Of a DNA stretch of 64,000 nt, positions 17,089 through 33,871 are shown in pieces (the first letter of the stretch is position 1; every line of letters begins with the position of its first letter). The position numbers and the translations under genes were made by a program. Origin of the DNA: Candidatus Nanoarchaeia archaeon. Lineage in GTDB: Archaea > Nanobdellota > Nanobdellia > Pacearchaeales > GW2011-AR1. The stretch lies in contig JAQUKY010000001.1 in the NCBI GenBank assembly GCA_028718805.1, forward strand, positions 80,384 to 144,383, read 5' to 3'. The notes under the pieces were generated by a model. It ran no database searches, was not told the origin of the DNA, and saw only the letters and a program-made list of their open reading frames with translations.

Positions 17089-17769
17089 TTAGATTATATC
17101 GATTATTTTTCCTATTTTAATCTTGCTTTTTAATGAATATAACTGCGGAGGCCTGTAAGAAACCTCTTTTTCTTTTTCCTCTGTTGGTTCGAGTAATTCT
17201 AAAGAAAGTATTTTTTTTCTGAAATTTCTTTTGTCAAAATTTTTTTCAAATATTATTTCATATATTTTCTGCAGTTGCGTTAGTGTAAACCTTTTTGGGA
17301 GAAAAGAGAAAGCGATTGTTGTGTATTCAAATTTCCATTTCAATCTTTTTATTGCGTATTTTAAAATTTCACTATGATCAAATGCAAGAGGAGGGAGATT
17401 TGATATTTCAAACCATTCTGCTTCTATAACATCTGTTGATGCATTTAATTTCTCTTTAGCTTTTTCAGAGTTTATTAAAGCAAAGTAAGTTACAGTAATT
17501 ACTCTTCCTCTTGGGTCTCTGCTGACATCCCCAAAAGTATAAAGTTGTTCTAAATACACTTCTTTAACTCCTGTTTCTTCTTCTAGCTCTCTTTTTGCTG
17601 CTTGTTCTAAATTTTCATGTATTTTTACAAATCCACCTGGAAAAGCCCATTTGTTTTTGAATGGTTCAACTCCTCTTTTTACAAGCAAAACTTTTAGATT
17701 ATTGTCTTTGATTGTAAAAATAACTATGTCAACTGTTACAGAAGGTCTTGGATAATCTGATAATTTCAT
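17089..17769 (-). CDS. nrtR: NrtR-like regulator: Nudix domain plus C-terminal winged-helix
   Basis: Intact Nudix box GGFVKIHENLEQAAKRELEEETGV. C-terminal FTLTQLQKIYEIIFEKNFDKRNFRKKI matches the NrtR wHTH signature as I recall it. Last gene of the NAD cluster. Confidence 0.75.
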   Translation of the reverse strand: MKLSDYPRPSVTVDIVIFTIKDNNLKVLLVKRGVEPFKNKWAFPGGFVKIHENLEQAAKRELEEETGVKEVYLEQLYTFGDVSRDPRGRVITVTYFALINSEKAKEKLNASTDVIEAEWFEISNLPPLAFDHSEILKYAIKRLKWKFEYTTIAFSFLPKRFTLTQLQKIYEIIFEKNFDKRNFRKKILSLELLEPTEEKEKEVSYRPPQLYSLKSKIKIGKIIDII

Positions 17770-18341
17770 TTGTATAGCCCCTTTTTTTGGATATATTCTT
17801 CAACTTTAAAGGGAACCATATCTTTTAAAGATTTTCCTTGCCTTATTCTTTCTCTTATTTCTGTTGAAGACTCATTATGTGTTTTAATATCTAATGCTGC
17901 CTTTATCCTCATATCTGGAATTTGCTTAATTGAATAGCCCTTTCTACTGAAAATAATAAATTCTGTTTCTTTTAATAGTTCATTTAACCCGTACCAGCTG
18001 TTATTTTCCATTTCATACAAAACGTCTGCTCCTATTACCCAATAAAACTCATGAGGATGTTTTTTCTTTAATTTTTTGATTGTTCTTATTGTATAGTTTG
18101 TTTCATTAGATTCAATTTCGGTTCTGTTTATTTTGACTTTTGGGTTATCAAATGCAAGCTGTATCATATTTATCCTGTCTTTAGCAGGAGCAAGATTCTT
18201 ATTGTACGGATGATTTTTAGAAGGGATAATCCACACTTCCTCTGCCACATGTTCTTCTAATACTGTATTTGCCATTTTTACATGATGATTATGAATAGGA
18301 TTGAAACTTCCCCCGAATAAGGCTATTTTTTTATCTGTCAT
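17766..18341 (-). CDS. nadD: Nicotinate/nicotinamide mononucleotide adenylyltransferase (NadD type)
   Basis: GGSFNPIHNHH ((H/T)xxH motif) and SSTEIRERI (ISSTxxR motif). Confidence 0.85.
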   Translation of the reverse strand: MTDKKIALFGGSFNPIHNHHVKMANTVLEEHVAEEVWIIPSKNHPYNKNLAPAKDRINMIQLAFDNPKVKINRTEIESNETNYTIRTIKKLKKKHPHEFYWVIGADVLYEMENNSWYGLNELLKETEFIIFSRKGYSIKQIPDMRIKAALDIKTHNESSTEIRERIRQGKSLKDMVPFKVEEYIQKKGLYK

Positions 18342-19119
18342 TTTCTGTTTGTATAACCCTTAATGGATATTCGCTTAATCTTATTTCAAGTATGGAATCT
18401 CTTGGAAAGTCATATTCTATTGTATCAAGTGCAAACTTTCCTTCATGCCCTTTAGATTCTATTCTAAAATATTCTCCTTCTCCACTTTTAATCGGACGAG
18501 CTGTTGTGAACTTAAATATTTTCGAGTTTCTTGGATAAGGAGTAAAATCAGAATGCCAGCCTGTTGAACCAGTTCCAGTAACTATGACTAACCCAGAATT
18601 TTCATGATATTCTATTTTTTCGTCGTACATTATATTATAGCGGGCCATTTTTGTGAATTTCATGCCTTCTCCCCCAACAGCTGTTTCGTTTAATGCTCTG
18701 CCAATAAATTTTCCATCGTGATAAACATCTTGCCTTGTCCATTCTTCAATTTTATAATTGCTATTAAGAAAATTTTTAAGAGCGTTTTCTGTATCTTTCT
18801 GGCAAAGAGCCCCAACGCTTTTTGAATCTGTTTTGAGATTTAACTGGGGGATATTTTTATTGAAGGCGGCGGTCGCAATAACCGTACCATCTCCTCCAGC
18901 CGAGATAACTGCATCATATTCGTTAACGAGTTCTTCTGATAATTCTCTTCGTGTAATTGTCCTATACTCACCTCCTGCTTTTTTGATTAATTCTTCTGTT
19001 TTCTCTACGCTTTGATTGTGATTTTCATGGCTTTCTATAATTTGCCTGCTTTTATGATTGCCATTATAATAGAATTCTAATGCTGACATTTTTCTTACTA
19101 TTAGTATTTTAGGTTTCAT
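18331..19119 (-). CDS. nadK: NAD kinase
   Basis: GGDGT motif (ISAGGDGTVIA), LNETAV, and glycine-rich VTGTGSTGW. Confidence 0.8.
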   Translation of the reverse strand: MKPKILIVRKMSALEFYYNGNHKSRQIIESHENHNQSVEKTEELIKKAGGEYRTITRRELSEELVNEYDAVISAGGDGTVIATAAFNKNIPQLNLKTDSKSVGALCQKDTENALKNFLNSNYKIEEWTRQDVYHDGKFIGRALNETAVGGEGMKFTKMARYNIMYDEKIEYHENSGLVIVTGTGSTGWHSDFTPYPRNSKIFKFTTARPIKSGEGEYFRIESKGHEGKFALDTIEYDFPRDSILEIRLSEYPLRVIQTENDR

Positions 19120-19145
19120 TTTTTCATTTGGATATCCTCTTAACT

Positions 19146-19164
19146 TAGTGTATATTTTACACTA
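19146..19164 (-). promoter_or_regulatory. Predicted NrtR-type operator fused to the TATA box (nadK-nadD-nrtR promoter)
   Basis: Minus strand reads ATTTAAATAGTGTAAAATATACACTAAG. It has perfect 7-bp arms TAGTGTA/TACACTA with a 5-nt spacer, immediately 3' of TTTAAATA. Confidence 0.6.
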
Positions 19165-19219
19165 TTTAAATCTTTGTATACTGCAGTACATACTTTTAAT
19201 TTTTTATCTGCAATAATTT

Positions 19220-20239
19220 TTACCTTCTGAGATTGTACATTTTTCTTCCAAGGGCTTTAATTTTTTCAGAATTTTTTAGCTCATTTACCCATTTATCTGG
19301 GAATATCATGCCGTTCTTTGCCCCGGCTAATGCTCCATACATTGCTCCTGTTGTGTCGCAATCTCCCCCAAAATTTACTGTTTCAATTAAACCTTCTATT
19401 GGTTTATCCCAGTATTTTTGGAACATGAAGATTGTGAAAGGATAAGCTTCAAAAACCAGGGAAGAGCATCCAAGAATCGCATATGCTTTTATATCTGGAG
19501 CATCTTGATTTTCTTTGACCCATTTCAATTTTGAGGAAAGATTGCCTCTTTCAGGTAAAGCGTCATACTCCTGCTGCCTTTCATTTTTTGTGCAGGTATT
19601 TACTATTGAATCTAAAAATTCTTGCTTTGCTGGCTCGTTTAATAATTGAGATATAGCATGGGCTTGCACAACTCCAGATGCAATTGACCTTTCATCTAAA
19701 TGAGTTGCTCTTGAAATTAATCTTGACATCTTAATTCCTTCTTCGTATTTCCCTGTTGCATGCATATATAATCCTACAGGCGCCATTTTCATGCAGGGGC
19801 CAGTTCCAGGGCCAGGAGAAATTCCCAATTTTATTTTTTCAAATGCCTCTCTTGTTGATTTCCCAAATCCCCCTCTGATCTTTCCATCTGGTTTCCTGAG
19901 AGAATCATAAACTTCCACTTGTTTTTTACAGATATCTGTTAAATCTAATATTTTTTTATCTGCAATTGACTCTGCTATTGCTAAAGTTAGTATAGTGTCA
20001 TCAGTATAATCCCCTTTTGATAGGTCTCTTCCCCAATATTTTAGCCTGCCAAATTCATCTTCTTTTAGTAAATTTCCATTTTTATCTTTGACAAGAACGG
20101 GGTCAATAAGGTCTGTTATTCTTCCAACATATTTCTTAATTTGTCCCTTTTTCCATGCTTCTATAGGCATTCCAAGAGCATCTCCGATACCACAGCCGAT
20201 TAAAGTTGCGATATATTTTTCTTCAATATTTGTTTTCAT
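19220..20239 (-). CDS. ADP-ribosylglycohydrolase (ARH/DraG family)
   Basis: GCGIGDALGMPIE, GDYTDDT and GGDCDTTGAMYGALAGA (binuclear-metal ligand contexts). Confidence 0.85.
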   Translation of the reverse strand: MKTNIEEKYIATLIGCGIGDALGMPIEAWKKGQIKKYVGRITDLIDPVLVKDKNGNLLKEDEFGRLKYWGRDLSKGDYTDDTILTLAIAESIADKKILDLTDICKKQVEVYDSLRKPDGKIRGGFGKSTREAFEKIKLGISPGPGTGPCMKMAPVGLYMHATGKYEEGIKMSRLISRATHLDERSIASGVVQAHAISQLLNEPAKQEFLDSIVNTCTKNERQQEYDALPERGNLSSKLKWVKENQDAPDIKAYAILGCSSLVFEAYPFTIFMFQKYWDKPIEGLIETVNFGGDCDTTGAMYGALAGAKNGMIFPDKWVNELKNSEKIKALGRKMYNLRR

Positions 20240-22764
20240 TTTCGTTGTTTTACAATCTCTGGCTTACTGCCTTTTTTTACTATCGTTAATCCTAAAAACT
20301 TTTTATCTTCTTCTGGGAAATCTTCTCTGAAATGACAGGCTCTGCTTTCCTCTCTTTTTAATGCACTTTCTAAAATTATACTTGCAACGTCTGCGATATT
20401 TCTAACTTCTAAAAAATCTTTTGCTAAGAAATAATCCCAATAAAACACATCGATTCCTTTTTGAAGTGCATTTAATTTTTGTATTGCAATCTCTAGTCTT
20501 TTCTTGTCTCTTGAAATTCCGCAAAGGTCAGTCATTACTCTTCTTATTGATTCCCAGTATTCTTCTATTAACTCCTGATGTTTTATCTTGGTTGCTTTTC
20601 CAACGTCCCATAATGGTATTTCTATATCTTTATTATCATGCTTCTTTGATAAAAAATGTTTTGCAGCAAGTCTCCCAAATAATATGCATTCTGGACCAGA
20701 ATTGCTTGCAAGACGTGTTGCCCCATGTAGTCCAGTGTATGATGTTTCCCCGAGTACATAACAGTTTTTTATGCTGGTTTCTGAATTTGAATCAACTAAC
20801 ACTCCTCCGTTTGAGTAATGAACTGCATAAACAATTGGGATAGGATCTTTTTTCATATCAAATCCCTTTTTAAGGCAGAAATCATAGGAATTCTTAAAAT
20901 CTTTTGTGAGCCTGCTTTCAGGGATTTTAGTGCAGTCTAACCATAAATGAGTTAAATTATTTTTTTTCATTTCCAGGTCTTCTGCCCGGCTTACAACATC
21001 ACGTGTTGCCTTTGAGCCAAGAGGATGGTACTTTAAAATGCAATCTTCTTTAGAATCTTTATAAGTCTTGATTATTGCTCCTGCTCCGCGCAGAGCTTCT
21101 GTTAATAAGAATCTTCTTTCGTTTTCATGTCTTGCCTTTAGGTCATAGAAAACACTTGGGTGAAATTGTATAAATTCCATATTTGCCAGAGGCAACCCTG
21201 CTCTGTAACACATTGCAAACCCGTCTCCTGTGGCAATATCTTTGTTGCTTGTGTATGAGAAAACTTTTCCAAGTCCTCCTGTGGCAACAAATGTTGCTTT
21301 GCAAGAAACAGTCTTGACATAATTCTTTTTTATATCATAGACATAAAATCCCAGGCATATATTTTTACCTTTTCTTCTTAATTTTTTGCTGGTTATTAAA
21401 TCAATAACAATGTGGTCTTCATGCAAAGTTATGTTTGGGTGAGTTCTTACTTTTTCACTGAGAATTTTCATTATAGTAATTCCTGTTGTGTCTTTTGCAT
21501 GAAATACTCTATTTCTGCTGTGCCCTCCTTCTATATGCAGATCATAAACATATCCTTTTTTTGATTTATCAAAATCAACTCCCTTTTGAACTAACCATTC
21601 TATAACATCTGGAAAAAAATGCTTTGAACAATATTCTACAATTTTCTTGTCATTTAGATATTTTCCTGCCATGAGCGTGTCTTTTACATGTTTTTCAAAT
21701 GAGTCTCCTTTTAACGGCTTGTTGTTAATTATTGGAACTGCAGTTAATCCCCCTGCTGCCAGATAACTATTGCAGTCTTTGAATAAGCTTTTCTTTACAA
21801 ATAAGTCTACTTTTTTACCTGCATCAGCTAATTCTAGTGCTACTGTGCATCCTGCAAATCCTCCCCCAATTACTCCACATTCAGTTCTTATCATATTTCT
21901 GTCCATGCCTAGGTCAACTGATCTTGCAGAGTGGGTTATTTCGCCTATTGAGATTCTTTCAACTCCTGTTTTAGCAATACTTCTAACATTCTCAAGGTTT
22001 ATGCCTCCTGATGCCTCTAGCAATGGCTTTTTATTTTTATTATTCTCATTTCTCATTAAAACTGCTTTTTTTAACTGTTGAGGGCTCATGTTATCCAAAA
22101 GGATTATATCTATCCCAGGAATTTTTAAAATATTTTTAAATTGATTTAAATTATCTACTTCTATTTCTATAAATTTTATTTTTTTCATTTTTTTTGCCTT
22201 GGTTACTATTTTATTTAATTGGTCGTATGTGTTTTTTCTAAGTTGTGCTAGATGATTGTCCTTGATAAGAACTGCATCATAAAGCCCTATTCTGTGATTG
22301 TTTCCCCCTCCACATTTAACAGCATATTTTTCCAATTGTCTCCAACCCGGAGTTGTTTTTCTTGTGTCGTATATTTTTGCGCTAGTCTCTTTTACTGCAT
22401 CTACATATTTACTAGTTAATGTTGCAATTCCGCTTAGTTTTTGCATAAAATTAAGAAGAACCCTTTCAGAATTTAGAATAGAATTTAAACGTCCTTCTAT
22501 TGTTGCTATCTTTTCTCCTTTATCAACTCTTTCTCCATCTTCTGCATATATCTTGACTTTTAGGCTTGGGTCATATTCTCTTAAAATTTCTGCAATGAGA
22601 TTTGTTCCGCATACGATTATTTCCTCCCGGGAAACAATGTTTGCACTTATAACTTCGTTATTTTCATGGAAGAGACTTGTTGTTACATCTCCGTTTCCGA
22701 AATCTTCTTTAACTGCCATCTTGATTAAATGAGGCAATCCCTTGAATTTTGTTTTGTTTTTCAT
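20236..22764 (-). CDS. nadC-nadB: Fusion: quinolinate phosphoribosyltransferase (NadC, N) plus L-aspartate oxidase (NadB, C)
   Basis: N about 290 aa: DTRKTTPGWRQLEKYAVKCGGGNNHRIGLYDAVLIKDNH. C about 550 aa: FAD fold GVIGGGFAGCTVALELA, FIQFHPS, GLHGATRLASNS. Confidence 0.9.
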   Translation of the reverse strand: MKNKTKFKGLPHLIKMAVKEDFGNGDVTTSLFHENNEVISANIVSREEIIVCGTNLIAEILREYDPSLKVKIYAEDGERVDKGEKIATIEGRLNSILNSERVLLNFMQKLSGIATLTSKYVDAVKETSAKIYDTRKTTPGWRQLEKYAVKCGGGNNHRIGLYDAVLIKDNHLAQLRKNTYDQLNKIVTKAKKMKKIKFIEIEVDNLNQFKNILKIPGIDIILLDNMSPQQLKKAVLMRNENNKNKKPLLEASGGINLENVRSIAKTGVERISIGEITHSARSVDLGMDRNMIRTECGVIGGGFAGCTVALELADAGKKVDLFVKKSLFKDCNSYLAAGGLTAVPIINNKPLKGDSFEKHVKDTLMAGKYLNDKKIVEYCSKHFFPDVIEWLVQKGVDFDKSKKGYVYDLHIEGGHSRNRVFHAKDTTGITIMKILSEKVRTHPNITLHEDHIVIDLITSKKLRRKGKNICLGFYVYDIKKNYVKTVSCKATFVATGGLGKVFSYTSNKDIATGDGFAMCYRAGLPLANMEFIQFHPSVFYDLKARHENERRFLLTEALRGAGAIIKTYKDSKEDCILKYHPLGSKATRDVVSRAEDLEMKKNNLTHLWLDCTKIPESRLTKDFKNSYDFCLKKGFDMKKDPIPIVYAVHYSNGGVLVDSNSETSIKNCYVLGETSYTGLHGATRLASNSGPECILFGRLAAKHFLSKKHDNKDIEIPLWDVGKATKIKHQELIEEYWESIRRVMTDLCGISRDKKRLEIAIQKLNALQKGIDVFYWDYFLAKDFLEVRNIADVASIILESALKREESRACHFREDFPEEDKKFLGLTIVKKGSKPEIVKQRK

Positions 22765-22766
22765 TT

Positions 22767-23675
22767 TTAACCTACACTTATCATCTTATTTAATGCTTTG
22801 CTGGCTTTAATCCTTATGTTTTCTGGAACATTTATCTCATACTGGTTTTTTTCAAGTGCTTCATAAACCTTTTTTAGAGTAGTTTTTTTCATGTTAGGGC
22901 ATGTTCCTCCAATTGAATAATACTTGTTCTCTGGGTTTTCTTTGATTAATCTATTAATCATATCTATTTCTGTTGCTAAAATTATTTGTTTGTTTTTATT
23001 TTCCTTTGCAAATTTAACCATTTTTTCTGTTGAGCAGATTTCATCTGCGTATTTTAAGACTTCTGCAGGACATTCAGGGTGCATTATAAGCTTTGCTTTT
23101 GGGTTTTGTTCTTTTGCAAGCTTTGCTTTTTCAGGAGAAATATTCTGATGGACATGACAGTAGCCCTGCCAGGGGATTATTTTCTTGTTTGTTTTTGTCT
23201 GAACATATGCACCAAGATTTTTATCAGGAATAAACAAAATTTCATTTTCCTTCATACTGTTTACAAGTTCAACTGCATTTCCAGAAGTACAACATGCATC
23301 TGATTCTGCTTTTATATTTGCATTTGTGTTTACATATGCAACGACTGCTGCTCCTGGATGCTGTTTTTTGAATTCTTTTAACTGTTTTACTGTTATCATT
23401 TCTGCCATAGGGCATCCTGCGTCAATTGCAGGGAGCAAGACTATTTTTTTTGGATTAAGTATTTTTGCAGTTTCTGCCATGAATTTGACTCCGCAGAAAA
23501 CTATTATGTCCTTGTCTGTTTCTGCAGCTTTTTTGCTTAATCCAAGAGAGTCTCCTATATAATCTGCAACTTCATATATTTCTGGTCTTTGATAGTTATG
23601 AACCAGTATGACTGCGTTTTTCTTTTTCTTTAATTCTTCAATTTTCCTGATTAGATTTTTTTCTTTATTTTCCAT
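22767..23675 (-). CDS. nadA: Quinolinate synthase
   Basis: About 300 aa with LVHNYQ, FCGVKFMAETAKIL and MHPECP contexts typical of NadA. Confidence 0.9.
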   Translation of the reverse strand: MENKEKNLIRKIEELKKKKNAVILVHNYQRPEIYEVADYIGDSLGLSKKAAETDKDIIVFCGVKFMAETAKILNPKKIVLLPAIDAGCPMAEMITVKQLKEFKKQHPGAAVVAYVNTNANIKAESDACCTSGNAVELVNSMKENEILFIPDKNLGAYVQTKTNKKIIPWQGYCHVHQNISPEKAKLAKEQNPKAKLIMHPECPAEVLKYADEICSTEKMVKFAKENKNKQIILATEIDMINRLIKENPENKYYSIGGTCPNMKKTTLKKVYEALEKNQYEINVPENIRIKASKALNKMISVG

Positions 23676-24111
23676 TTTTCTGCCTCCATATCTTATACTT
23701 TTCGATAATTTTTTTATGACTGAAAGCCATGTCAGGCAAGTTATCTAAGGGGAATTTTTTAACATCTGCTGCATCATCCCCTGGCTTTGTAACTCCGGTA
23801 TATTTTGTTGTAACATAGATTAAAGAGACTATATGCCCTCTTTCATTTTTGAGGGGATTATCTTTATGAGGATTTGATGTTTCGTGAAACAGCTCTAAAT
23901 CCTCTGTTTCTACATCTAAGCCTGTTTCTTCCTTAGCTTCTCTCCTGGCAGTTTGCCTCACGTTCTCTTCATCAACATTCAGAAACCCTCCCGGGAGTGC
24001 CCACAGACCTTTGTAAGGATTAAATTTTCTCTGAATCAAATATATCTCCCCATTATCTTCTATTATCAGGTCTGCAGTTACACTTGGTTTCTTAAAATTT
24101 TCTTGTTGCAT
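23665..24111 (-). CDS. Nudix hydrolase
   Basis: Nudix box GGFLNVDEENVRQTARREAKEETGL. Confidence 0.85.
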   Translation of the reverse strand: MQQENFKKPSVTADLIIEDNGEIYLIQRKFNPYKGLWALPGGFLNVDEENVRQTARREAKEETGLDVETEDLELFHETSNPHKDNPLKNERGHIVSLIYVTTKYTGVTKPGDDAADVKKFPLDNLPDMAFSHKKIIEKYKIWRQKNGK

Positions 24112-24112
24112 T

Positions 24113-24874
24113 TTAACTCTTAATAGCCTCCATAATTTTATTCTTAAATTTTATATCTACATCATAGGATATAAATCTATTTTCTGCTGTTTTATTAAAC
24201 TTTACGAAATCTTCTCCTAAAGCAGCAGATACTGCCAGAGCATCGTACATTGGAAATTCAGTTCTTCCTGTATAATCTGCCCATCTTTTTGTGGATTCAT
24301 ATAAAAAGTTTCCTAATTCAGTTTTTTTAAGAGCTTCTAGTTCATTTAGTGTGAAACAAACTTTTTTTGAGACTTCATTAGTTATCTGGAAAATTTTCCA
24401 GGGCTGAGAGAATACTTTTTGTGCAGCTTCGTTATCTGTTATCATATTGTGAGTGCCTTCAGAACCCATTATATAAACTTCTTTAACATTTTTTATACTT
24501 GGATTGTTTTCAAGCTGAAAAGCAATGTTTGTTAAAAGACCTATGCAAATAAGCTTTGTATCTTTATCATATTCTGGAAACTTATTATTTTCTAAATTTT
24601 CATTAAGCTCCTGCTGAGTTAAAGCTAATGGCTCTATTCCTGTCCAGTATTTTTTTATCATATCTTTGCTTCCAGATTTGCCCGCGGTTATTGGAATGTT
24701 AATTCCCAAAATCCTCTCGAGCTTTCTTGCTATCTTCGCCCTTATTATTGTGTCTCCCTGAGTAATTGTTATTGCCTTTATGTCTGCATTATTTTTTATA
24801 GCATAAGCCAGTGCAAACGCATCATCGGGGTCTGTTCCGATGTCTGTATCAATTACGAAATTTGTTTTTGTCAT
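24113..24874 (-). CDS. Nucleoside hydrolase (IU-NH family, short form)
   Basis: N-terminal aspartate cluster IDTDIGTDPDDAFALAYA. It is 253 aa, shorter than the roughly 310 aa of typical Rih enzymes. Confidence 0.7.
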   Translation of the reverse strand: MTKTNFVIDTDIGTDPDDAFALAYAIKNNADIKAITITQGDTIIRAKIARKLERILGINIPITAGKSGSKDMIKKYWTGIEPLALTQQELNENLENNKFPEYDKDTKLICIGLLTNIAFQLENNPSIKNVKEVYIMGSEGTHNMITDNEAAQKVFSQPWKIFQITNEVSKKVCFTLNELEALKKTELGNFLYESTKRWADYTGRTEFPMYDALAVSAALGEDFVKFNKTAENRFISYDVDIKFKNKIMEAIKS

Positions 24875-26476: not shown

Positions 26477-27333
26477 CTTTTATTCCTCCAAGATTTATAT
26501 CTCTCCATTACCAAGTTATGGTCAAAGGCAAGTCTTGGGGTTTCTTCAAGAGTAGCCCAGTATAGTTCAGAAGCATCATCTCCTGCTTTTGGGATTCCTT
26601 TATAATTTTTTACAATAAAAATGTGGTCAATTACATGAGTTCTTGGATCTCTATCCGGAGATGAGTTAACCATCAGTAATTCTAAATCTTCTGGGTTAGT
26701 TTTGAGGTTTGTTTCTTCATCTAATTCTCTTACTGCAGTCTTTTCCAATGATTCTTTCATGTAATCAAGGAATCCTCCCGGTAGAGCTAACATTCCTTTG
26801 TAGGGTTCATGCTTCCTTTTAACATAGCAGATTTTCCCGTTTCTTTCAACAATCATTGATGCTGTTGAAGCTGGATTTTTAAATTCCATTTTACTCCATT
26901 GTTTTACTTGTTTAGCTAAATCGTTTATAGAATAGACAATTTTTATCTCAGGTCTGATTAATGCTGTTTGTATTTCAACATCTATTTTTCTTTTGTATTC
27001 TGGATGAACCCCTATGAAAACGGGTTTATCAGAGTTACTTTGTTTTCCAAGTTCATAGAGAGTTATTGGGCAAAGAGTTTCTTTTGGGAACCAGAATGAA
27101 ACTGCATCTGCCTTCCTGAGATGATTGTATTCCCATATTATCTGTTCTTTGTCTATGCCAGGCTTATCTGGAAATATTTTTCTTCTTGGATTTAATATCA
27201 CAATTTTTTCATCTTCTAGTAACTTTACTAATTCTGACTGCCAGTTTTGGCATCCTGTTATGCCTCCGGCTATGAACAAGGATTTTTCATCTTGTTTTCT
27301 TTCATATTCTTCAGGCGCTTCTGTGTATTTCAT
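26470..27333 (-). CDS. Fusion: nucleoside 2-deoxyribosyltransferase-like domain (N) plus Nudix hydrolase (C)
   Basis: N half: LFIAGGITGCQNW...ADAVSFWF...ITLYELG (NDT/SLOG-like, Glu in YELG). C half: Nudix box LPGGFLDYMKESLEKTAVRELDEETNL. Confidence 0.65.
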   Translation of the reverse strand: MKYTEAPEEYERKQDEKSLFIAGGITGCQNWQSELVKLLEDEKIVILNPRRKIFPDKPGIDKEQIIWEYNHLRKADAVSFWFPKETLCPITLYELGKQSNSDKPVFIGVHPEYKRKIDVEIQTALIRPEIKIVYSINDLAKQVKQWSKMEFKNPASTASMIVERNGKICYVKRKHEPYKGMLALPGGFLDYMKESLEKTAVRELDEETNLKTNPEDLELLMVNSSPDRDPRTHVIDHIFIVKNYKGIPKAGDDASELYWATLEETPRLAFDHNLVMERYKSWRNKRC

Positions 27334-27334
27334 T

Positions 27335-28252
27335 TTATCTGTACTCCAAATTTATTTTAGCTATTGGGGGATGTAAAATTTCAGATTTCTTCTGAGCAAT
27401 TTTATTTCTCCTTAAAATGTCATATACAATTTTTTCAGTTGTGTTGAATTTTCTATTTCCATAAATTTTTTCATACTTTTGCATATCTTTTTCAGTATAT
27501 TCTTTAACTTGAGTATTTTCTATAAGGTTTTCAAGAGAGAATCCTTGTGTAAGACCCTCTGTTACTAATTCTACGGTTTCATACTCATAACCCAAGTCTT
27601 TGAAATCTGTTTGATTTGGTTCTATTCCTGCTGTTGGTGTTTTTTTTGCTATTTCGGGAAATCCGAGATATTCTGCCATCTGTTTCACTAATCTTTTTGA
27701 GAGATTTCCAATAGGAGAAAGATGAACAGCACCATCTCCGAATAAAGTATAATATCCTACACCAAAGTCTTCATCTTTATTTCCGGTTCCTAGCACTAAT
27801 TTTTGTTCTATGGCTGCTTTTGTTGATAAAATATTAGCCCTTATTCTTGCTATCAAGTTACCTTTGTCATATTCTTTGCCTACCTCAAAAATTCTTGGGT
27901 CAACAGTATAAAATCCTTCAATCGCTTTGTTTATGTCTATGACTTCATAGTCTATTGCAAGTTTTTTTGCAACATATGTCCCATCTATTGTATCTTTTTG
28001 CTCATTTAGTTTTGTTGGAAGCATATACCCAATTAATCCTAGTTTTCTGTCTTTCCTTCTATTGTTTTCATTATAATTATCAAATGCTTTTTTTGCTAAT
28101 GCTGCTGTTACTGTTGAATCTACTCCTCCGGATAATCCTATTACTCCCCCGGTATAGCCTATGCTGGTTATTTCATCTAAAATGAAATCTCCGATTTCAT
28201 CTGCTGCCTTTTCTGGATTCATGTATGGAAGTTTTATTTTTTCGTTTTTCAT
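27335..28252 (-). CDS. nadE: NH3-dependent NAD+ synthetase
   Basis: PP-loop GLSGGVDSTV, GNLIARIRANIL, GTGNKDEDFGVGYYTLFGDG. The start is set at MKNEKI, whose ATG overlaps the upstream TGA (ATGA). Confidence 0.85.
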   Translation of the reverse strand: MKNEKIKLPYMNPEKAADEIGDFILDEITSIGYTGGVIGLSGGVDSTVTAALAKKAFDNYNENNRRKDRKLGLIGYMLPTKLNEQKDTIDGTYVAKKLAIDYEVIDINKAIEGFYTVDPRIFEVGKEYDKGNLIARIRANILSTKAAIEQKLVLGTGNKDEDFGVGYYTLFGDGAVHLSPIGNLSKRLVKQMAEYLGFPEIAKKTPTAGIEPNQTDFKDLGYEYETVELVTEGLTQGFSLENLIENTQVKEYTEKDMQKYEKIYGNRKFNTTEKIVYDILRRNKIAQKKSEILHPPIAKINLEYR

Positions 28253-29184
28253 ATTTTTTCCTCCTCTAAAAAATAAGGTGTCAGGCAAAGCCTGCAGAAC
28301 TTATCCCTCATGAATTGTTCTATGTGTTTATCTGTGTTTGCAAGCAAAATAACATCGCTTGCTTTCAGATTTAGATTATGTTTTTTATTCAATTCTTTGA
28401 TTATTTTATCCTGGAGCGGCTTATATTTATTGTAAAGCTGTTGTGGTCTTATTTCATCCAAAATTCTGTCTGCTACAACCAGAGAGAATATATTCTTAAA
28501 CCATATATTCGCTTCAAGTGTTTCTATTGGCTCTCTGCTAAAAGTGAAACCTATCCTATAATAATACAAACCAAAAGGTTTGCTCATTGAAGTTACCACT
28601 GCGATTATGTTCTGATTGCTTAAATCGAATTTGTTATCTCTTGTTAAACCAGCATAACTAGTATCATAAACAACTTTGTGATATTTGCAGATCTCATTTA
28701 TAAATTCATTTTTGATTATGTTTCCATTTCTTGAAGAAGGGTTTGAGATGAAGAAGATTCCTGGATTTAATTTTGAAAACTCTTCATTTTCGTTAACTTC
28801 AATTATCTTTATTCCCATTTCCTTGGCATACTCTTTGTATCCTTCATATTCTCCCTTTAAAGTATAAATGGGTGCTTCAGGATTTTTTGTTTTTAGCTTA
28901 ACAAGCAAATGAAAAATACCTTCACTTGCTCCTGCTGTAAAATATCTATACTTAAAATCTTTTAAAGAGGGTAATTGTTTTTCATTATATCTTATAAACT
29001 TTCCAATTACTGGAAAGTGAAAGTCATCTAAGCCAGGAGTTATTGAACTAAGGAAGACTTTATGAGGATAGTTTTTAACAACTTCGTCTATAACTTTTCT
29101 TATTTCTGGGAAATAATAGCAATAGACTGTTCTTGTAGCTTTTAGCTTTTCTATTTCAATATTTTTTTGTTTTTGAATTTCCAT
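28249..29184 (-). CDS. PLP-dependent aminotransferase-fold protein (class I/II-like), function unknown
   Basis: TSMSKPFGL (Schiff-base Lys context), DTSYAGL and FISNPSSRNGN (degenerate NPxNPTG) in the expected order. Short (311 aa). Confidence 0.5.
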   Translation of the reverse strand: MEIQKQKNIEIEKLKATRTVYCYYFPEIRKVIDEVVKNYPHKVFLSSITPGLDDFHFPVIGKFIRYNEKQLPSLKDFKYRYFTAGASEGIFHLLVKLKTKNPEAPIYTLKGEYEGYKEYAKEMGIKIIEVNENEEFSKLNPGIFFISNPSSRNGNIIKNEFINEICKYHKVVYDTSYAGLTRDNKFDLSNQNIIAVVTSMSKPFGLYYYRIGFTFSREPIETLEANIWFKNIFSLVVADRILDEIRPQQLYNKYKPLQDKIIKELNKKHNLNLKASDVILLANTDKHIEQFMRDKFCRLCLTPYFLEEEKI

Positions 29185-29185
29185 T

Positions 29186-30046
29186 TTAAATTAAAATTGC
29201 CCCCTTATACTGCCAGTCATATCTTAGATGACCATCTGGAAAAAATATTATCTGCCTTAGGTTATCTGAATCTGGCTCTATTGTTAATGCATCTGTAATG
29301 CATATATTCTGCCCGTGAACATCGTAGACTTTTGCTCCATCATGAAAAGTCATAAGTTTGTTTCCATTTCTAATTACAAAGTTTCTTATTTTTGTCATTT
29401 CTGATTCTTTGATGAGATTTTCTGCAGTCCATGCAGCAATTTCATTATCTTCAGAATGTTTTGGCATTGCGAGTTTTCTTATGCTTAGATGCTCTAATTT
29501 CCATTCTTTAGCTTTTTCAATAAGATTCTTTACTTCTTCTGGATTGTCAATAAATCCTTTTAGCATAGTGCAGCTTATTCTTACTGAAAATCCAATAATA
29601 TGCAGTTTTTTAATTAAATTTTCAAGTTCAGGATATTCCTCTGAGAATATTTCCTTGTTTCTTTCTTGTTTATAATGAACTGCAGACAGAGCTATCATTG
29701 TTAATCCTAGAGTATACCATCTTTTCAGATGTTTGTTATAGCTTTCTTGGGTAAGTAAAATCCCATTTGTCTGTAATTCAATTAGTGGAAAATTGAATCT
29801 TTTTAAATTTTCCAGGAATTTTGTTATTTGCTTTGGATAAAGAGTTGGCTCTCCTTTTCCTGTTATCAAAACAGTCGTAATTCCTTTTATTTCTGCTAAC
29901 CTGCATGCTTTTTCAAAATTCCTCCAGTTAACTCTTGGTTCTTCTAAGCTAATCCCTTGTTTAGGAGTCATTTTTGATATGCAATAAGGGCAGTGCGCAT
30001 TGCATGCTGTTGTTCCTGCGACTATGCTAAATGTTTGTATTTTCAT
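29186..30046 (-). CDS. Radical SAM enzyme, function unknown
   Basis: CNAHCPYC (CxxxCxxC) at residues about 15-22, GKGEPTLYP (GGE-like) and ELQTNGILL. Confidence 0.8.
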   Translation of the reverse strand: MKIQTFSIVAGTTACNAHCPYCISKMTPKQGISLEEPRVNWRNFEKACRLAEIKGITTVLITGKGEPTLYPKQITKFLENLKRFNFPLIELQTNGILLTQESYNKHLKRWYTLGLTMIALSAVHYKQERNKEIFSEEYPELENLIKKLHIIGFSVRISCTMLKGFIDNPEEVKNLIEKAKEWKLEHLSIRKLAMPKHSEDNEIAAWTAENLIKESEMTKIRNFVIRNGNKLMTFHDGAKVYDVHGQNICITDALTIEPDSDNLRQIIFFPDGHLRYDWQYKGAILI

Positions 30047-30513
30047 ATTTTGCCTCCTGGTTTATAACCGCTTATCATCAAGAAACCGTTTCCGGCTAAT
30101 TTTAGTGTTTCCTGCTCTTTTAATCCCAGAGTTTTTCCGCTCATTATCTCCCAAAGTCCAAGAGCCTTTCCTAAAGCCATTGTTCTTAATGCTTCTTCTT
30201 GTTCTACTTCTAAATTAGGGGCTAGTTCAATATAACTTGGCCCCCCAGCAAGCCTGTCTTTTTGGGGGTAATCTTCTAATAGAGTTTCTAATTCTTTTTT
30301 TCTTGCCTTTGCTTTTTCTTTGTCAACTAAGACATCTACAAAGATCATATCTATTTTTTCATATTTTTCATTATTCGGAGCTTCTGAAGTATGAGGATAG
30401 CCAAATATCTCCACAACATGTAGATTCCCAGTATTTCTTTCCTCAATTACCCCTCCTTTTCTGTAAACTCTCGTAGTTTCCTGCAGTATGTCATAAAGTT
30501 TCTCAGTGTTCAT
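30043..30513 (-). CDS. Hypothetical protein (156 aa)
   Basis: Overlaps both neighbours by 4 and 11 nt; no motif recognised. Confidence 0.5.
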   Translation of the reverse strand: MNTEKLYDILQETTRVYRKGGVIEERNTGNLHVVEIFGYPHTSEAPNNEKYEKIDMIFVDVLVDKEKAKARKKELETLLEDYPQKDRLAGGPSYIELAPNLEVEQEEALRTMALGKALGLWEIMSGKTLGLKEQETLKLAGNGFLMISGYKPGGKI

Positions 30514-30781
30514 TTTTTTTACCTCCGTAGCTAAAAATAAGCCTGTTACATCGGTCTGTTTGGGATCCTGTGAAGTGATAAACTTTCCAGTGAGGGCTGT
30601 ATATCTGAATTAGTTTGTCAATAGCTTCTCTTGAAGTATTGTCTAGAAGATCAAATGCAACTTCTCGTGTTCCATTAAAAGTTGCTTCAAGAAACTTATC
30701 AATTTCTATTTCTAGGCTTTTGACAGTTTCATTGTCATTTCTTATTTTTCTTTCAATTAATGGTTCTGGTATGATTACCAT
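30503..30781 (-). CDS. Hypothetical small protein (92 aa), paralog of 31133..31390
   Basis: Shares MVI(I/T)P start, LExxIDxxLE, IYxxxWxV and QxxxxxxLxF with the 85-aa ORF. Confidence 0.45.
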   Translation of the reverse strand: MVIIPEPLIERKIRNDNETVKSLEIEIDKFLEATFNGTREVAFDLLDNTSREAIDKLIQIYSPHWKVYHFTGSQTDRCNRLIFSYGGKKNEH

Positions 30782-31131: not shown

Positions 31132-31132
31132 T

Positions 31133-31390
31133 TTATTCTCTGCCTCCGGTTTTCATTTCTTTAAAACTTAGATAGTTTCCTTCTCTTTGGTCTGATTCAT
31201 AACTGACCTCCCAGCCAGCTTTTTCATATATATGAGTTATTTCTTGAACTACTTTTTCTCCAGGATATTCATTTATATCGAAAGTATTTTCCCCTTCCAA
31301 TAATGCCTGGTCAATTCTCTTCTCCAGACCTTTAAGCAGGGCTTTATCTGCTTTTGTCAGAGCTTTTGCTTCTTGAGGTGTGATTACCAT
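31133..31390 (-). CDS. Hypothetical small protein (85 aa), paralog of 30503..30781
   Basis: The start is trimmed to MVITPQ (ATG 1 nt after the pncA TAA). The longer track ORF would overlap pncA by 83 nt. Confidence 0.45.
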   Translation of the reverse strand: MVITPQEAKALTKADKALLKGLEKRIDQALLEGENTFDINEYPGEKVVQEITHIYEKAGWEVSYESDQREGNYLSFKEMKTGGRE

Positions 31391-31391
31391 T

Positions 31392-32129
31392 TTACAATTT
31401 TCCCTCCAAAACCTGTTTAGTTGTAATGAGTTTGGCACCAGCTTTTGACATTTCTTCAAGTGCTTTATTTCCAAATTCAGGATCTACTTTTCCTTCAAAA
31501 TTTATATTAACAGCTTCTATTGCATCAGTTACCACATAAATCTCCAATGGTTTTTGATATTTGTCTCTAATTTCCGCCATTTTCAGAACTGCTGCTTTAT
31601 CACAATAGTCTGTTGCAAAACCATTTACAATGACTCTTTGTAGGCCTTTGTCAAGCAATTTTTTAAATGCTGGCTCAAAATTAGGATTTGTCCCAACATT
31701 ATAGTTCTGCTTTTCAAAAATTAAGTGCATCTTATTTTTTTCTGCAGCTTCTGTATACTTCTCTAGTTCATTGTTAGTATAAATCTTAATTCCCAGTTCA
31801 GGCCCATCCTTTGCTCTTATATAAATGTCTTTTTGAGGTTCTAGTTCTTTTAGCCTTAACTGACCCCAGGTTCCATTCATGCAATGATCATCAAATACCC
31901 CTCCCTGGTTTCTTATTAATTCTGCATCTTCGTAAAAATGCCTGTCTACTGACCCGAGAAACAGATAGTTGTTATCAATTGCATTTTTATGTATTGCAAA
32001 TATATTCGGGAGTCTTTCTTCTGCACCATAAGGCAATGCTGTTTTTGGCTTGTTAGCTCTTACAAACAATGCTCCTTCTCTTACACTAAAGTCGTACTGA
32101 ACATCTGTTTCATAAATTGCAGTTTTCAT
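31392..32129 (-). CDS. pncA: Isochorismatase-family nicotinamidase
   Basis: N-terminal Asp (ETDVQYDF), metal-site context SVDRHF...DDHC, and nucleophile Cys in GFATDYCDKAAV. Confidence 0.7.
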   Translation of the reverse strand: MKTAIYETDVQYDFSVREGALFVRANKPKTALPYGAEERLPNIFAIHKNAIDNNYLFLGSVDRHFYEDAELIRNQGGVFDDHCMNGTWGQLRLKELEPQKDIYIRAKDGPELGIKIYTNNELEKYTEAAEKNKMHLIFEKQNYNVGTNPNFEPAFKKLLDKGLQRVIVNGFATDYCDKAAVLKMAEIRDKYQKPLEIYVVTDAIEAVNINFEGKVDPEFGNKALEEMSKAGAKLITTKQVLEGKL

Positions 32130-32130
32130 T

Positions 32131-33324
32131 TTATTTTATACCTCCTAATCTTAGTTTTAGTTTTGGATTTGGATTGTATTGTCTTCCGACTTTTGCAATC
32201 GGAACAAAATGTTCTGGATCTTCTCCAACAGCAACTATGTCCATTTTTGATGCCCTTGATTCGAAAATCTGGCCTACACCAAGACCTTCAAATAGTTTTG
32301 TTCCTAACAATTTCTCTGCTCTTACAAATGCCTCGACCTTTTTTGGTTCTGCAAAACCACTTGATAACCAGATTTGCAAATTTTTGTAATTATTTTCATC
32401 AAGAGCTTTTCTCATGGCATAAGTCCCTGTTACAGTCACTCCTCTGTCAAACCAGTATTTCTCATCTTCTTTAGGAATGATTACTTTTTTTCCAACTAAT
32501 CTCTCAAGTTTCTTTTCATCTTTAAATTCTAAAGCTCCTTCTCCGGCATTTTCACCACATGTATCTATTCTTGGGCCATGAAGCCTGTTTTTCAGAGCTT
32601 TGGCTGTATCTAAAGTGTCTGTAATTTCTTTATTTCTGTAATCACATAAAATTATTCTTGGAACTTCTGGTTCAATGTGTTTATCAAAAGCAATCATTGT
32701 TTCTGAAACAGCTCTTTCGTAGCCATATTTTGCAGCCATTATATTTTCTAGAACGTGAGGAGTTGTTCCCATTCCTTTTTTCCCTGCTGTTGCTGCACCA
32801 ATATCTGTTGAAGCGCTTGTTGCACCTGCTTCAAAAGCTGCTTTTGTAATTGCTGCATCTTCATCATATCTCCAGTGCCTTGCACCAAAATAAGAAATAA
32901 ACCTTCCTTCTGCAGCTTTCACAACGTACCTCATATTTTTTCTTACTAAGTCTAAATCTATTCCGTGCTTATCGTTCGCTTTTGTAGTTTCTGCTGCTAA
33001 AACTCCTAGATACATTGTTTCTAAATCCACAATGTCTTGGATTGGAGCCTCAATAAGCATAAGTGTTTCTTTCGGCTGATAAGATTCTCCTTCATTTAGT
33101 GCATAAACTCTTCCTTTATGAGCAACTAAATTGCTGTATTTATCAAGAATTGCAAGAGCTTCATTTATTCCATAAACTTTTCCAGGCCCTTTTCTTATAA
33201 ATATCTGTGCTCTTACCCAAGGATTGATACCTTCTGCTTCAAGTATTTTCTTTGCTCTTAGAAAATATTTGTCAATATAAGAAGCATATTCATCAGGCAG
33301 ATTAAATTTTTTTGTTTGTGCCAT
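32131..33324 (-). CDS. pncB: Nicotinate phosphoribosyltransferase (archaeal/type II PRTase-like)
   Basis: GTTPHVL, ILCDYR, PRIDTCGE, IWLSSGF and LGVGQIF align in order with conserved blocks of archaeal NAPRTases as I recall them. Confidence 0.75.
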   Translation of the reverse strand: MAQTKKFNLPDEYASYIDKYFLRAKKILEAEGINPWVRAQIFIRKGPGKVYGINEALAILDKYSNLVAHKGRVYALNEGESYQPKETLMLIEAPIQDIVDLETMYLGVLAAETTKANDKHGIDLDLVRKNMRYVVKAAEGRFISYFGARHWRYDEDAAITKAAFEAGATSASTDIGAATAGKKGMGTTPHVLENIMAAKYGYERAVSETMIAFDKHIEPEVPRIILCDYRNKEITDTLDTAKALKNRLHGPRIDTCGENAGEGALEFKDEKKLERLVGKKVIIPKEDEKYWFDRGVTVTGTYAMRKALDENNYKNLQIWLSSGFAEPKKVEAFVRAEKLLGTKLFEGLGVGQIFESRASKMDIVAVGEDPEHFVPIAKVGRQYNPNPKLKLRLGGIK

Positions 33325-33332
33325 TTTTATTT

Positions 33333-33746
33333 TTATTTTTTACCTCCTTCATTTACAAACATCATCTGCATTTTTCCTACTATATCCGGCGTCTCAACTT
33401 TATTTAGAAAACATCCTGTCTGATAAAATTCAATTATTTCTCCTTGAGGGTCATAAACATCGCCTTGTAAAAGCCTTCTTGCAGTTACATGCCATCCGTC
33501 AGGGTAGATATCATAAGGTCCGTGTCCTGTACCTCCTCCGCCATAATAAGTTTTTTCAACAACATACCTTGCTTTTTCTCTTTCTTGGTCTATATGCCCC
33601 CTAAATTTCATAGGGCCTGCTACATTAAAGCGTCCTTTTTGAAATAGATTAGGATTTTCTATAATTCCTTCTATTCCGACTTGTGGGATTTTTATTACAT
33701 CCCCTATCTGGACTAGTTTTTGTTTTGTTAGTGTATTATTTAACAT
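33333..33746 (-). CDS. Hypothetical protein (137 aa), first gene of the NAD operon
   Basis: Gly-rich loop YYGGGGTGHGPYDIYPDGWH; no family recognised. Confidence 0.5.
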   Translation of the reverse strand: MLNNTLTKQKLVQIGDVIKIPQVGIEGIIENPNLFQKGRFNVAGPMKFRGHIDQEREKARYVVEKTYYGGGGTGHGPYDIYPDGWHVTARRLLQGDVYDPQGEIIEFYQTGCFLNKVETPDIVGKMQMMFVNEGGKK

Positions 33747-33750
33747 AAGT

Positions 33751-33769: not shown

Positions 33770-33871
33770 TTTAAACCTATGTGTACTAGAGAATACATAT
33801 TGTTAGAGTTAAACTAAGATTGAAAATTACCGAGAATATGCCTTAAAATTACATACACTAAGGAGGATAAA

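Follow-up and report, generated by a model that had tools for sequence, protein, structure and literature searches.

The 64-kb stretch of DNA analysed here (64,000 nucleotides, hereafter the window) comprises positions 80,384 to 144,383 of contig JAQUKY010000001.1 in assembly GCA_028718805.1, a metagenome-assembled genome (MAG) of a Candidatus Nanoarchaeia archaeon; the Nanoarchaeia belong to the phylum Nanobdellota, a DPANN lineage (NCBI taxonomy). Between positions 17089 and 33746 lie 21 consecutive open reading frames (ORFs), all on the minus strand, which bring together the routes to nicotinamide adenine dinucleotide (NAD) in one locus. The two intergenic gaps of this locus each hold one perfect copy of an NrtR-type operator, and its last gene encodes an NrtR protein. 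Probably, the locus represents an NAD regulon under the control of NrtR, organised in two adjacent transcription units, in an archaeon of the DPANN group (Nanoarchaeia/Woesearchaeales-like).

Gene content of the locus

The back-to-back, minus-strand arrangement of 21 genes that an earlier note on this DNA had described is borne out by the ORF listing of the window. Neighbouring genes are joined at distances of -11 to +8 nt throughout, with the single exception of a 100-nt gap (19220/19119). The gap had been seen correctly in the note, while its statement that most genes overlap or lie no more than 10 nt apart nearly holds, the largest overlaps being 11 nt. Unit 1 consists of 18 genes (33746 to 19220) and unit 2 of nadK, nadD and nrtR. 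Two over-extended starts in the mechanical ORF list were corrected, placing orf85 at 31133-31390 and nadE at 27335-28252. In transcription order, the genes are as follows, where L numbers refer to loci of a comparison set of 87 related loci (857 kb), 80 of them metagenomic loci fetched via the radical S-adenosylmethionine (SAM) protein.

33333-33746, minus strand: gene 1, 137 aa; matches phrog_7702 only, no homologue in related NAD loci
32131-33324, minus strand: PncB-like nicotinate phosphoribosyltransferase (PRTase), archaeal type-II PRTase, 397 aa (QRPTase_N; PDB 2i14, E 2.5e-16)
31392-32129, minus strand: PncA-like nicotinamidase, isochorismatase fold, 245 aa; translation shows DVQYDF, FEKQ and TDYC, family match weak
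31133-31390, minus strand: orf85, small protein with homologues in L003 and L073
30775-31131, minus strand: orf118, coiled-coil N-terminus followed by C-x48-CxxC
30503-30781, minus strand: orf92
30043-30513, minus strand: orf156, conserved uncharacterised family
29186-30046, minus strand: radical SAM enzyme (rSAM), CNAHCPYC, single-domain, MoaA/viperin-like fold (Pfam/NCBIfam, model)
28249-29184, minus strand: short fold-type-I pyridoxal phosphate (PLP) enzyme, CobD/HisC-like fold (PF00155, model)
27335-28252, minus strand: NadE, ammonia-type NAD synthetase (TIGR00552, 155.9 > 63.65)
26470-27333, minus strand: fusion of a nucleoside-2-deoxyribosyltransferase (NDT)-like and a Nudix domain (Nuc_deoxyri_tr2 + NUDIX)
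25892-26476, minus strand: PnuC nicotinamide riboside transporter (TIGR01528)
24871-25902, minus strand: NadR-type bifunctional NMN adenylyltransferase (NMNAT; NMN, nicotinamide mononucleotide)/ribosylnicotinamide kinase (RNK), lacking the helix-turn-helix (HTH) domain (PRK08099)
24113-24874, minus strand: short inosine-uridine-type nucleoside hydrolase (IU_nuc_hydro)
23665-24111, minus strand: free-standing Nudix hydrolase, most similar to the ADP-ribose pyrophosphatase domain of NadM-Nudix
22767-23675, minus strand: NadA quinolinate synthase
20236-22764, minus strand: NadC-NadB fusion, 842 aa, with quinolinate PRTase at residues 14-288 and L-aspartate oxidase at residues 292-839
19220-20239, minus strand: ADP-ribosylglycohydrolase (ARH; DraG/ARH family, profile match), last gene of unit 1
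18331-19119, minus strand: divergent NAD kinase (NadK-like), a family present in 29 related loci
17766-18341, minus strand: NadD nicotinate-mononucleotide adenylyltransferase (TIGR00482)
17089-17769, minus strand: NrtR, Nudix and winged-helix DNA-binding domains (NUDIX + NrtR_WHD)

Predicted promoters and operators

Both intergenic gaps of the locus contain the TATA box TTTAAATA, followed at once by a 19-bp palindrome that shares two bases with it. The promoter and operator elements are:

33768-33775, minus strand: promoter P1 TATA box TTTAAATA, starting 29 nt before the gene 1 ATG
33751-33769, no strand: predicted NrtR operator O1, perfect palindrome TAGTGTA-N5-TACACTA, between the P1 TATA box and the unit 1 start codon
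33798-33816, no strand: weaker distal operator-like site TATTGTTAGAGTTAAACTA, 47 bp away from O1 and differing from the relaxed motif at one position
33729-33747, no strand: weak operator-like site with three mismatches, 22 bp from O1, overlapping the gene 1 start codon
19163-19170, minus strand: promoter P2 TATA box TTTAAATA, inside the 100-nt gap
19146-19164, no strand: predicted NrtR operator O2, perfect palindrome TAGTGTATATTTTACACTA, abutting the P2 TATA box

The perfect palindrome occurs exactly twice in the whole window, namely as O1 and O2. When up to three mismatches are allowed, six matches are found against 1.84 expected, a number that none of 100 shuffles reached; two of the weaker matches fall in the P1 region (33798-33816 and 33729-33747), the latter being a possible tandem operator site. 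Rewritten as TAkTGT-N7-ACAmTA, the motif contains GT-N7-AC, the common core of most NrtR group operators (Rodionov et al. 2008, PMC2330246). A spacing of 7-N7-7, which was tried first, returned chance matches only; the actual spacing is 7-N5-7. The earlier note had listed an nrtR-like gene simply as the end of the cluster; the gene is indeed present, but with the operator in exactly two gaps it appears as the organising element of the locus and not merely as its last gene.

Eight genes of the window, gene 1 included (1901-2209, 2960-3268, 3437-4111, 8206-8853, 10224-11114, 11175-12212, 48170-49408 and 33333-33746), have a TTTAWA box beginning exactly at position -29 relative to the ATG, a sign that many transcripts of this genome may be leaderless. 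For the same reason, P1 has the appearance of a standard leaderless archaeal promoter, with O1 at about -23 to -5 relative to the gene 1 ATG. The P2 TATA box is found at -51 and is followed by a leader with GAGG. After a GAGG motif, a mini-ORF of three codons (ATG AAA AAA TGA; 19116-19127, minus strand) overlaps the nadK start with its stop codon (ATGA) and could be either a translational-coupling leader or a chance occurrence.

The probable regulon in related genomes

The same palindrome marks NAD genes far beyond the window. Across the comparison set, 50 perfect operators are found against 0.62 in composition-preserving shuffles, and nearly all of them stand at a distance of 18-70 bp 5′ of nrtR, the rSAM gene or whichever gene opens an NAD operon. 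Paired operators are frequent, either 22-23 bp—the commonest tandem spacing—or 50-55 bp apart. NadR, at 75% identity, led to three relatives: one named 'Candidatus Woesearchaeota archaeon', one unclassified MAG and one other MAG. Their NAD clusters are reduced in size and rearranged, with the motif after a TATA box both before the NAD operon and before nrtR, and smaller or shuffled versions with pncB, pncA, rSAM, PLP, nadE, nadD, Nudix, pnuC, nadR, nadK and nrtR are common across DPANN. The cluster is thus less exceptional than the earlier note had claimed. Just 5′ of the operators of the L003 NAD operon (at about 1440-1640) lies a sequence that resembles a tRNA gene with extra sequence inserted, in which the GGTTCGAATCC arm is visible.

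In DPANN loci, the operator adjoins TTTAAA or TTTATA. A different setting is seen in L039, L042, L056, L061, L064, L065 and L068, in which TTGACA stands 17 nt 5′ of a TAGTAT/TAATAT hexamer that forms the operator centre, an arrangement we read as a sigma-70 promoter with the operator over its -10 region. The PLP proteins of L065 and L066 are 100% identical to an NCBI protein of Candidatus Collierbacteria, members of the candidate phyla radiation (CPR), and the regulator-operator pair therefore appears to be common to two domains of life, DPANN archaea and CPR bacteria. An ancient transfer of the regulon between the domains, in either direction, is likely and is compatible with the NrtR-controlled NAD regulon proposed here, which is an old resident feature of DPANN and not a recent insertion.

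Enzyme assignments

Protein functions were checked with Pfam and NCBIfam profiles, using the curated NCBIfam/TIGRFAM values as equivalog cut-offs. NadA (424 > 294 bits), NadC (287 > 198), NadD (172 > 112), NadE (156 > 64), NadR (236 > 201) and PnuC (99 > 42) all exceed their cut-offs, and NadB falls narrowly under its own (444.5 vs 452.75). The profile annotation and the synteny comparison with related bins that the earlier note had proposed confirm nearly all of its functional labels, close to one for one, show the synteny to be common to Woesearchaeota-type MAGs, and do not move many of the genes to families outside NAD metabolism. For PncA, PncB, NadK, NadB and a NadM-like protein encoded nearby, family-level homology is clear from the sequences and the operon context is fitting; their specificities, like that of every enzyme under its equivalog cut-off, are to be regarded as putative.

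The window encodes three NMNAT families, as had been recognised before: NadD, NadR and the NadM-like protein (35640-36194, plus strand). A search of the window with a profile of the Nudix and NrtR proteins from related loci detects three Nudix domains; four had been claimed, and a fourth was looked for with this profile and not found.

Two of the proteins are fusions. The NDT-like and Nudix halves of the first, separate genes in L002 and L003, are predicted to form a nucleotide N-glycosidase joined to a pyrophosphatase, acting in the turnover of NAD and ADP-ribose. The NadC-NadB fusion is nearly linker-free; its 842-aa ORF is also present on L001, and nadC and nadB are separate genes in L007 and L013. 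The nucleoside hydrolase encoded at 24113-24874 is predicted to cleave (nicotinamide) ribosides.

The NrtR regulator and its proposed mode of action

The product of the last gene combines a Nudix domain (PF00293, E 1.6e-23) with a winged-helix domain (PF21906, NrtR_WHD, E 2.3e-25), the pairing of domains expected of an NrtR. It reaches 195 bits with the NCBIfam model for the ADP-ribose-responsive repressor (NF050029), under the equivalog cut-off of 400. Homologues with at least 67% identity fill the best 120 clusters of the protein search; few of these 120 bear the name of a source, which is then Nanoarchaeota, Pacearchaeota, Nanoarchaeia or archaeon, and the annotation never goes beyond Nudix hydrolase. 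Some DPANN homologues (P0298, P0300 and P0311) are longer, with about 380 aa; they were considered as a potentially informative fusion and rejected as such, the extra part at the N-terminus being another Nudix domain in degenerate form. Since nrtR lies in unit 2 behind O2, NrtR is predicted to be an autoregulated repressor of both units.

We infer the following mode of action from the position of the operators. NrtR dimers would occupy O1 and O2, and possibly the auxiliary sites at P1, between the TATA box and the transcription start, and in so doing would block the recruitment of archaeal RNA polymerase or initiation at both TATA-box promoters. An NAD-derived ligand would release NrtR; by analogy, this might be ADP-ribose, which is the ligand of characterised NrtRs and would also be released by ARH and consumed by the Nudix enzymes, all encoded in the same operon.

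Once derepressed, unit 1 would provide the Preiss-Handler route from nicotinamide via nicotinic acid to nicotinic acid mononucleotide (NaMN) through PncA and PncB, with amidation by NadE and with NadD contributed by unit 2. It would likewise provide uptake of nicotinamide riboside by PnuC and its conversion by NadR, de novo synthesis of NaMN by NadB, NadA and NadC, and the recycling of ADP-ribose and pyridine nucleotides by two Nudix enzymes, the NDT-like glycosidase, the nucleoside hydrolase and ARH. Also co-expressed would be the conserved proteins of unassigned function, i.e. orf85, orf118, orf156, the rSAM and the PLP enzyme. Unit 2 would supply NadD, NadK and the repressor itself. The heavy, coordinated investment in NAD homeostasis by a small archaeal genome that the earlier note had pointed out is supported for this Nanoarchaeia (DPANN) MAG with its archaeal housekeeping flanks. 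A symbiosis-related, salvage-oriented NAD economy is plausible because PnuC and NadR, the nucleoside hydrolase and the recycling enzymes would fit it.

Several points weigh against this picture of a repressor-controlled NAD regulon. Among solved structures, the regulator is closest to the arabinose-responsive AraR of Bacteroides (BtAraR, PDB 5bs6, E 6e-46) and not to an ADP-ribose-responsive NrtR (SoNrtR, 3gz5, is the other nearest structure), which makes the effector uncertain. In addition, the window protein, like 109 of its 120 closest homologues, has an intact Nudix signature GX5EX7REUXEEXGU; an impaired signature has been reported for NAD-type NrtRs and AraR, for which this trait is typical and not defining (PMC4666351), and L039 and L042, both loci with bacterial promoters, do encode NrtRs with a degenerate one. 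In view of the intact signature, the DPANN NrtR may be both enzyme and repressor, and it could even be mainly an enzyme. Transcription of unit 1 as a single 18-gene, 14.5-kb transcript is assumed from gene spacing, and internal promoters are possible. Among the enzymes, PncB (138 bits vs a NAPRTase equivalog cut-off of 243), PncA (35 vs 174, with a Pfam isochorismatase score of 40 > 27), NadK (50 vs 326) and the NadM-like protein (88 vs 181) stay under their equivalog cut-offs, and gene 1 and orf92 are without a recognisable link to NAD.

The radical SAM-PLP pair

Within unit 1, the adjacent rSAM and PLP genes are of special interest. The rSAM family is uniform (285-293 aa, more than 1,500 matches), and an NAD gene lies no more than 3 kb away in 17 of the 21 distinct rSAM loci whose flanks extend for at least 3 kb in either direction. 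Three of the other four (L056, L064 and L065) carry a perfect NrtR operator 20 bp 5′ of the rSAM-PLP pair. In roughly half of the well-flanked loci, rSAM is directly followed by the PLP gene. The pair makes up an operon of its own in CPR, behind a separate operator (L065), and L042 holds a self-contained nrtR-rSAM-PLP unit with opposite-strand genes on either side. Judged by these associations, rSAM is a core member of the predicted NrtR regulon in both DPANN and CPR.

The structural model of the rSAM (predicted local distance difference test score, pLDDT, 87.5) is nearest to MoaA, viperins and BlsE, at identities of 11-18%. The viperins reach template modelling (TM) scores of 0.65-0.71 at 11-16% identity, and the protein stays below the viperin threshold (NF038283, 38.8 bits vs a cut-off of 180; PADLOC pVip, 43 bits). 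It likewise remains far under the MoaA cut-off (TIGR02666, 59 bits vs 284), and the PDB profile match spans residues 11-190 only. Besides CxxxCxxC, the conserved cysteines C48, C159 and C249 are dispersed and do not make up the C-terminal cluster triad of MoaA. The PLP enzyme matches PF00155 with 40 bits (cut-off 19.7) and is a fold-type I protein in which the SMSK lysine (K202), D174, Y177, N148 and R210 are invariant in 25 sequences, residues that we take to be cofactor contacts by analogy with aspartate aminotransferase. By its structural model (pLDDT 92.6), the enzyme is nearest to CobD and HisC, and it is under both equivalog cut-offs (hisC, 39.9 vs 276.6; CobD, 34.2 vs 290.6). CobD and HisC act on phosphorylated amino compounds, and MoaA, viperins and BlsE on nucleotides or nucleosides.

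These matches could be taken to mean that the pair, together with the small ORFs, consists of passengers unrelated to NAD, such as a MoaA-like and a HisC-like enzyme, that entered a compacted operon by chance. The best sequence and fold matches would agree with this, as would the merging of unrelated genes into operons in small genomes and the NAD operons of L003 and L004, which lack the pair; the rSAM of L002 has an in-frame stop as well. Yet the scores lie far under the MoaA, HisC and CobD cut-offs, the region of the MoaA C-terminal cluster is unmatched, and neither the operators in front of the pair nor the self-contained unit of L042 would be expected of a passenger. As the linkage has also been kept across two domains of life despite heavy reshuffling of neighbouring genes, we regard a passenger role as unlikely.

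The rSAM, often with the PLP enzyme and sometimes with orf156 or orf118, may instead catalyse an undescribed, oxygen-independent reaction on pyridine nucleotides that is common to DPANN and CPR, both large radiations of ultra-small symbionts, and has kept the same NrtR operator in both domains, a proposal that we put forward tentatively. For the pair, we would guess at radical chemistry that attacks a pyridine or adenine nucleotide at its ribose, with a PLP-dependent step afterwards. Candidate substrates are the ribose of NAD, nicotinic acid adenine dinucleotide (NaAD), NMN or ADP-ribose; another candidate role is to feed or replace part of the NadB/NadA branch. The operons of L007, L013, L030 and L031 have nadC, nadB and rSAM without nadA, and both nadA and rSAM are present in the window and in L011, L026, L036 and L062. 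A literature search for 'radical SAM' together with NrtR found no paper linking them.

A role of the pair as ammonia source for the short, glutaminase-less NadE was also considered, given that L002 and L003, which are without the pair, have a long NadE. It was rejected, as L009, L016, L021, L023, L047, L057 and L085 combine the pair with a long NadE. The L002 rSAM homologue mentioned above contains one in-frame stop (at about 2062-2067) where the window protein has Ser (KGF*IRLNC vs IGFSVRISC; asterisk, stop), and the PLP gene is absent from L002; the stop could reflect a pseudogene, a sequencing error or recoding.

Small ORFs

The earlier note had counted four orphans between pncA and rSAM. 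For three of these, this does not hold, since orf85, orf118 and orf156 recur in related NAD loci; it does hold for orf92, which, like gene 1, has no homologue among the fetched related loci. orf156, whose family comprises 355 representative clusters, is directly 5′ of rSAM both here and in L007, L008 and L050; Pfam searches with 39 family members and a PDB profile search gave no match. Homologues of orf118 are found in six related NAD loci, and in L003 and L073 an orf85 homologue comes first behind the operators. For gene 1 and orf85, the families returned by a PHROG scan were all of unknown function.

An NAD conflict module?

The gene content also invites the reading that the locus is a conflict module, i.e. 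that it is a host system sensing or countering the depletion of NAD by NADases of phages or of defence systems, or represents a virus-derived island for NAD reconstitution of the NARP1-3 kind within the chromosome, with the viperin-like rSAM as antiviral effector. PnuC and NadR are the exact pair of phage NARP3 (PMC13464706), and ARH, Nudix and NDT-like domains are frequent in NAD/ADP-ribose conflict systems (cf. PMC9503650). ADP-ribose, the usual NrtR effector, is a product of defence NADases too. The viperins are among the structural neighbours of the rSAM, with the weak PADLOC and NF038283 matches given above, but the protein resembles MoaA equally, and PADLOC, run on ten proteins, yielded nothing beyond this weak score. 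Similarly, gene 1 matches a PHROG of unknown function, but a scan for its relatives on viral contigs found none.

No Sir2, TIR or other recognised NADase partner was detected among the approximately 70 window proteins scanned with Pfam, the flanking genes serve replication and translation, and no other NAD pathway is visible in the window. Moreover, the core genes are 50-80% identical across hundreds of DPANN and CPR lineages with stable synteny, a housekeeping-like conservation. The conflict or NAD-depletion idea raised in the earlier note thus finds no support in these scans and is very improbable.

Genomic context and integrity

The flanks of the locus consist of archaeal housekeeping genes, including those for CDC48, family-B DNA polymerase (PolB), FEN1, RFC, TYW2/Trm5, TrmB and a HerA-like protein. 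Three neighbouring units extend the NAD theme in the absence of operators:

33872-34804, minus strand: PfkB-family ribokinase/ribose-1-phosphate-kinase-like protein (profiles), directly upstream of the locus, with its own promoter; no operator found
34984-36194, plus strand: divergent two-gene unit of orf219 and the NadM-like archaeal NMNAT (GRFQPFHTGH; profiles)
15544-16818, plus strand: fusion of a methylthioadenosine (MTA)/5′-deoxyadenosine-type phosphorylase (MTAP) and an adenine phosphoribosyltransferase (APRT), convergent with nrtR (TIGR01694, 311 > 275; APRT, 229 > 170)

Homologues of orf219 stand divergent from nadA in L036 and L037. The MTAP-APRT fusion could recycle MTA or 5′-deoxyadenosine, a by-product of rSAM enzymes, to AMP. 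An NrtR operator was looked for in the PfkB/orf219-nadM intergenic region and not found. This divergent promoter region holds an inverted repeat unrelated to the NrtR operator (TTAAGAAATCACC/GGTGATTTATAAA, 34831-34873, with 13-nt arms 17 nt apart), which may be a site for another regulator.

The bacterial flavour of part of the gene set raises the question of whether the block is a laterally acquired, CPR-like cluster, a bacterial contamination or an assembly chimera. NrtR, NadD, NadR, PnuC and NadB are typically bacterial families, and a bacterial link, for which the earlier note had proposed a test, is supported insofar as the identical operator and the rSAM-PLP pair also occur in Collierbacteria/Microgenomates contigs behind TTGACA -35 boxes. 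However, the block is contiguous with archaeal genes on both sides, and its promoter has an archaeal-type TATA box at -29, the geometry of seven other window genes, instead of the -35/-10 boxes of CPR.

The composition check that the note had suggested points the same way. The G+C content (GC) is 0.336 in the cluster and 0.328 in the window, with no compositional break, and GC and GC3 (GC at third codon positions) of every block gene match the rest of the window. The same 15.3 kb, with the same gene order, are found at 100% identity on an independent NCBI contig (JAQTOG010000028.1 of GCA_028713455.1; L001), and the junction of PfkB, gene 1 and pncB also appears in two Logan run assemblies. Because of the identical independent assembly, the archaeal flanks and the homogeneous GC and GC3, an assembly chimera or contaminant is very unlikely. 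With the shared synteny of related Woesearchaeota-type MAGs added, the idea of a bacterial block as a whole is very improbable.

Further away in the window, two other gene pairs were seen. A bacterial-type beta-ketoacyl synthase gene (467 aa) overlaps a peptidase-U32-like gene in this archaeal genome (46770-49408, minus strand). At 12775-13981 (minus strand), a gene for a Fic/DOC-domain protein (13406-13981) overlaps a family-less 224-aa ORF by 44 nt, and the two may form a toxin-antitoxin-like pair.

Comparison with known systems

Archaeal repressors such as MDR1, Phr and those of the TrmB type bind just 3′ of the TATA box and block the recruitment of RNA polymerase. The locus described here shares with them an operator between the TATA box and the transcription start; it differs in that the NrtR family has so far been characterised in bacteria only, and in that the same operator is found on sigma-70-type promoters in CPR. 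To our knowledge, all characterised cases of NAD metabolism under NrtR-type control are bacterial, and a literature search for NrtR together with DPANN lineages returned no relevant paper.

Pairs of a radical SAM enzyme and an aminotransferase that act on sugar nucleosides or nucleotides include BlsE/BlsH, DesII/DesI and BtrN with its transaminase. Common features are the single-domain CxxxCxxC rSAM, the adjacent, translationally coupled gene for a fold-type-I PLP enzyme and the nucleotide context. By contrast, the PLP partner here is of the HisC/CobD type and not a DegT/DnrJ sugar-aminotransferase, and the rSAM often occurs without an adjacent PLP gene.

A close parallel is provided by the bacterial NrtR regulons (PMC2330246), such as those of the Shewanella, Synechocystis and Mycobacterium NrtRs. 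These share the Nudix and winged-helix repressor, the GT-N7-AC palindrome, the tandem operators and an autoregulated, co-localised regulator, as well as nadABC, pncAB, nadDE, pnuC-nadR and draG-like targets. The present locus departs from them in its archaeal host, in an operator that is fused to the TATA box of a leaderless promoter and does not lie over -35/-10 boxes, and in bringing all NAD routes together in one 21-gene locus. Furthermore, the Nudix signature is intact here and impaired in classical bacterial NrtRs, and the rSAM-PLP pair and the small ORFs go unmentioned in the NrtR literature examined. BtAraR, the Bacteroides arabinose repressor (PDB 5bs6, PMC4666351), has the same two-domain dimeric repressor design, but it binds L-arabinose, controls arabinose genes and has a degenerate Nudix domain, whereas the operator-linked genes here are all NAD-related and the Nudix signature is intact.

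PnuC-NadR salvage, known from enterobacteria, Haemophilus, Lactococcus and the phage system NARP3 (PMC13464706), likewise involves adjacent, overlapping genes and a NadR with NMNAT and RNK domains. Unlike in that salvage system, NadR lacks the N-terminal HTH domain here and would not be a regulator, and in contrast to the two-gene phage module, the genes are part of a much larger operon on an archaeal chromosome.

Cofactor biosynthesis has been described as minimal in Woesearchaeota and as almost absent in DPANN archaea (PMC8421398). The presence of every NAD route in one regulated locus contrasts with this picture and bears on models of what symbionts take from their hosts. At the same time, one regulatory module appears to work with two transcription machineries, i.e. 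leaderless archaeal promoters with a TATA box in much of DPANN and bacterial promoters in CPR, and membership in the regulon makes candidates for missing biochemistry around NAD of the rSAM-PLP pair and of several small proteins. Taken against the systems above, the locus is best classed as an NrtR regulon set in archaeal promoter architecture and grown to 21 genes, with the rSAM-PLP module as an extra component.

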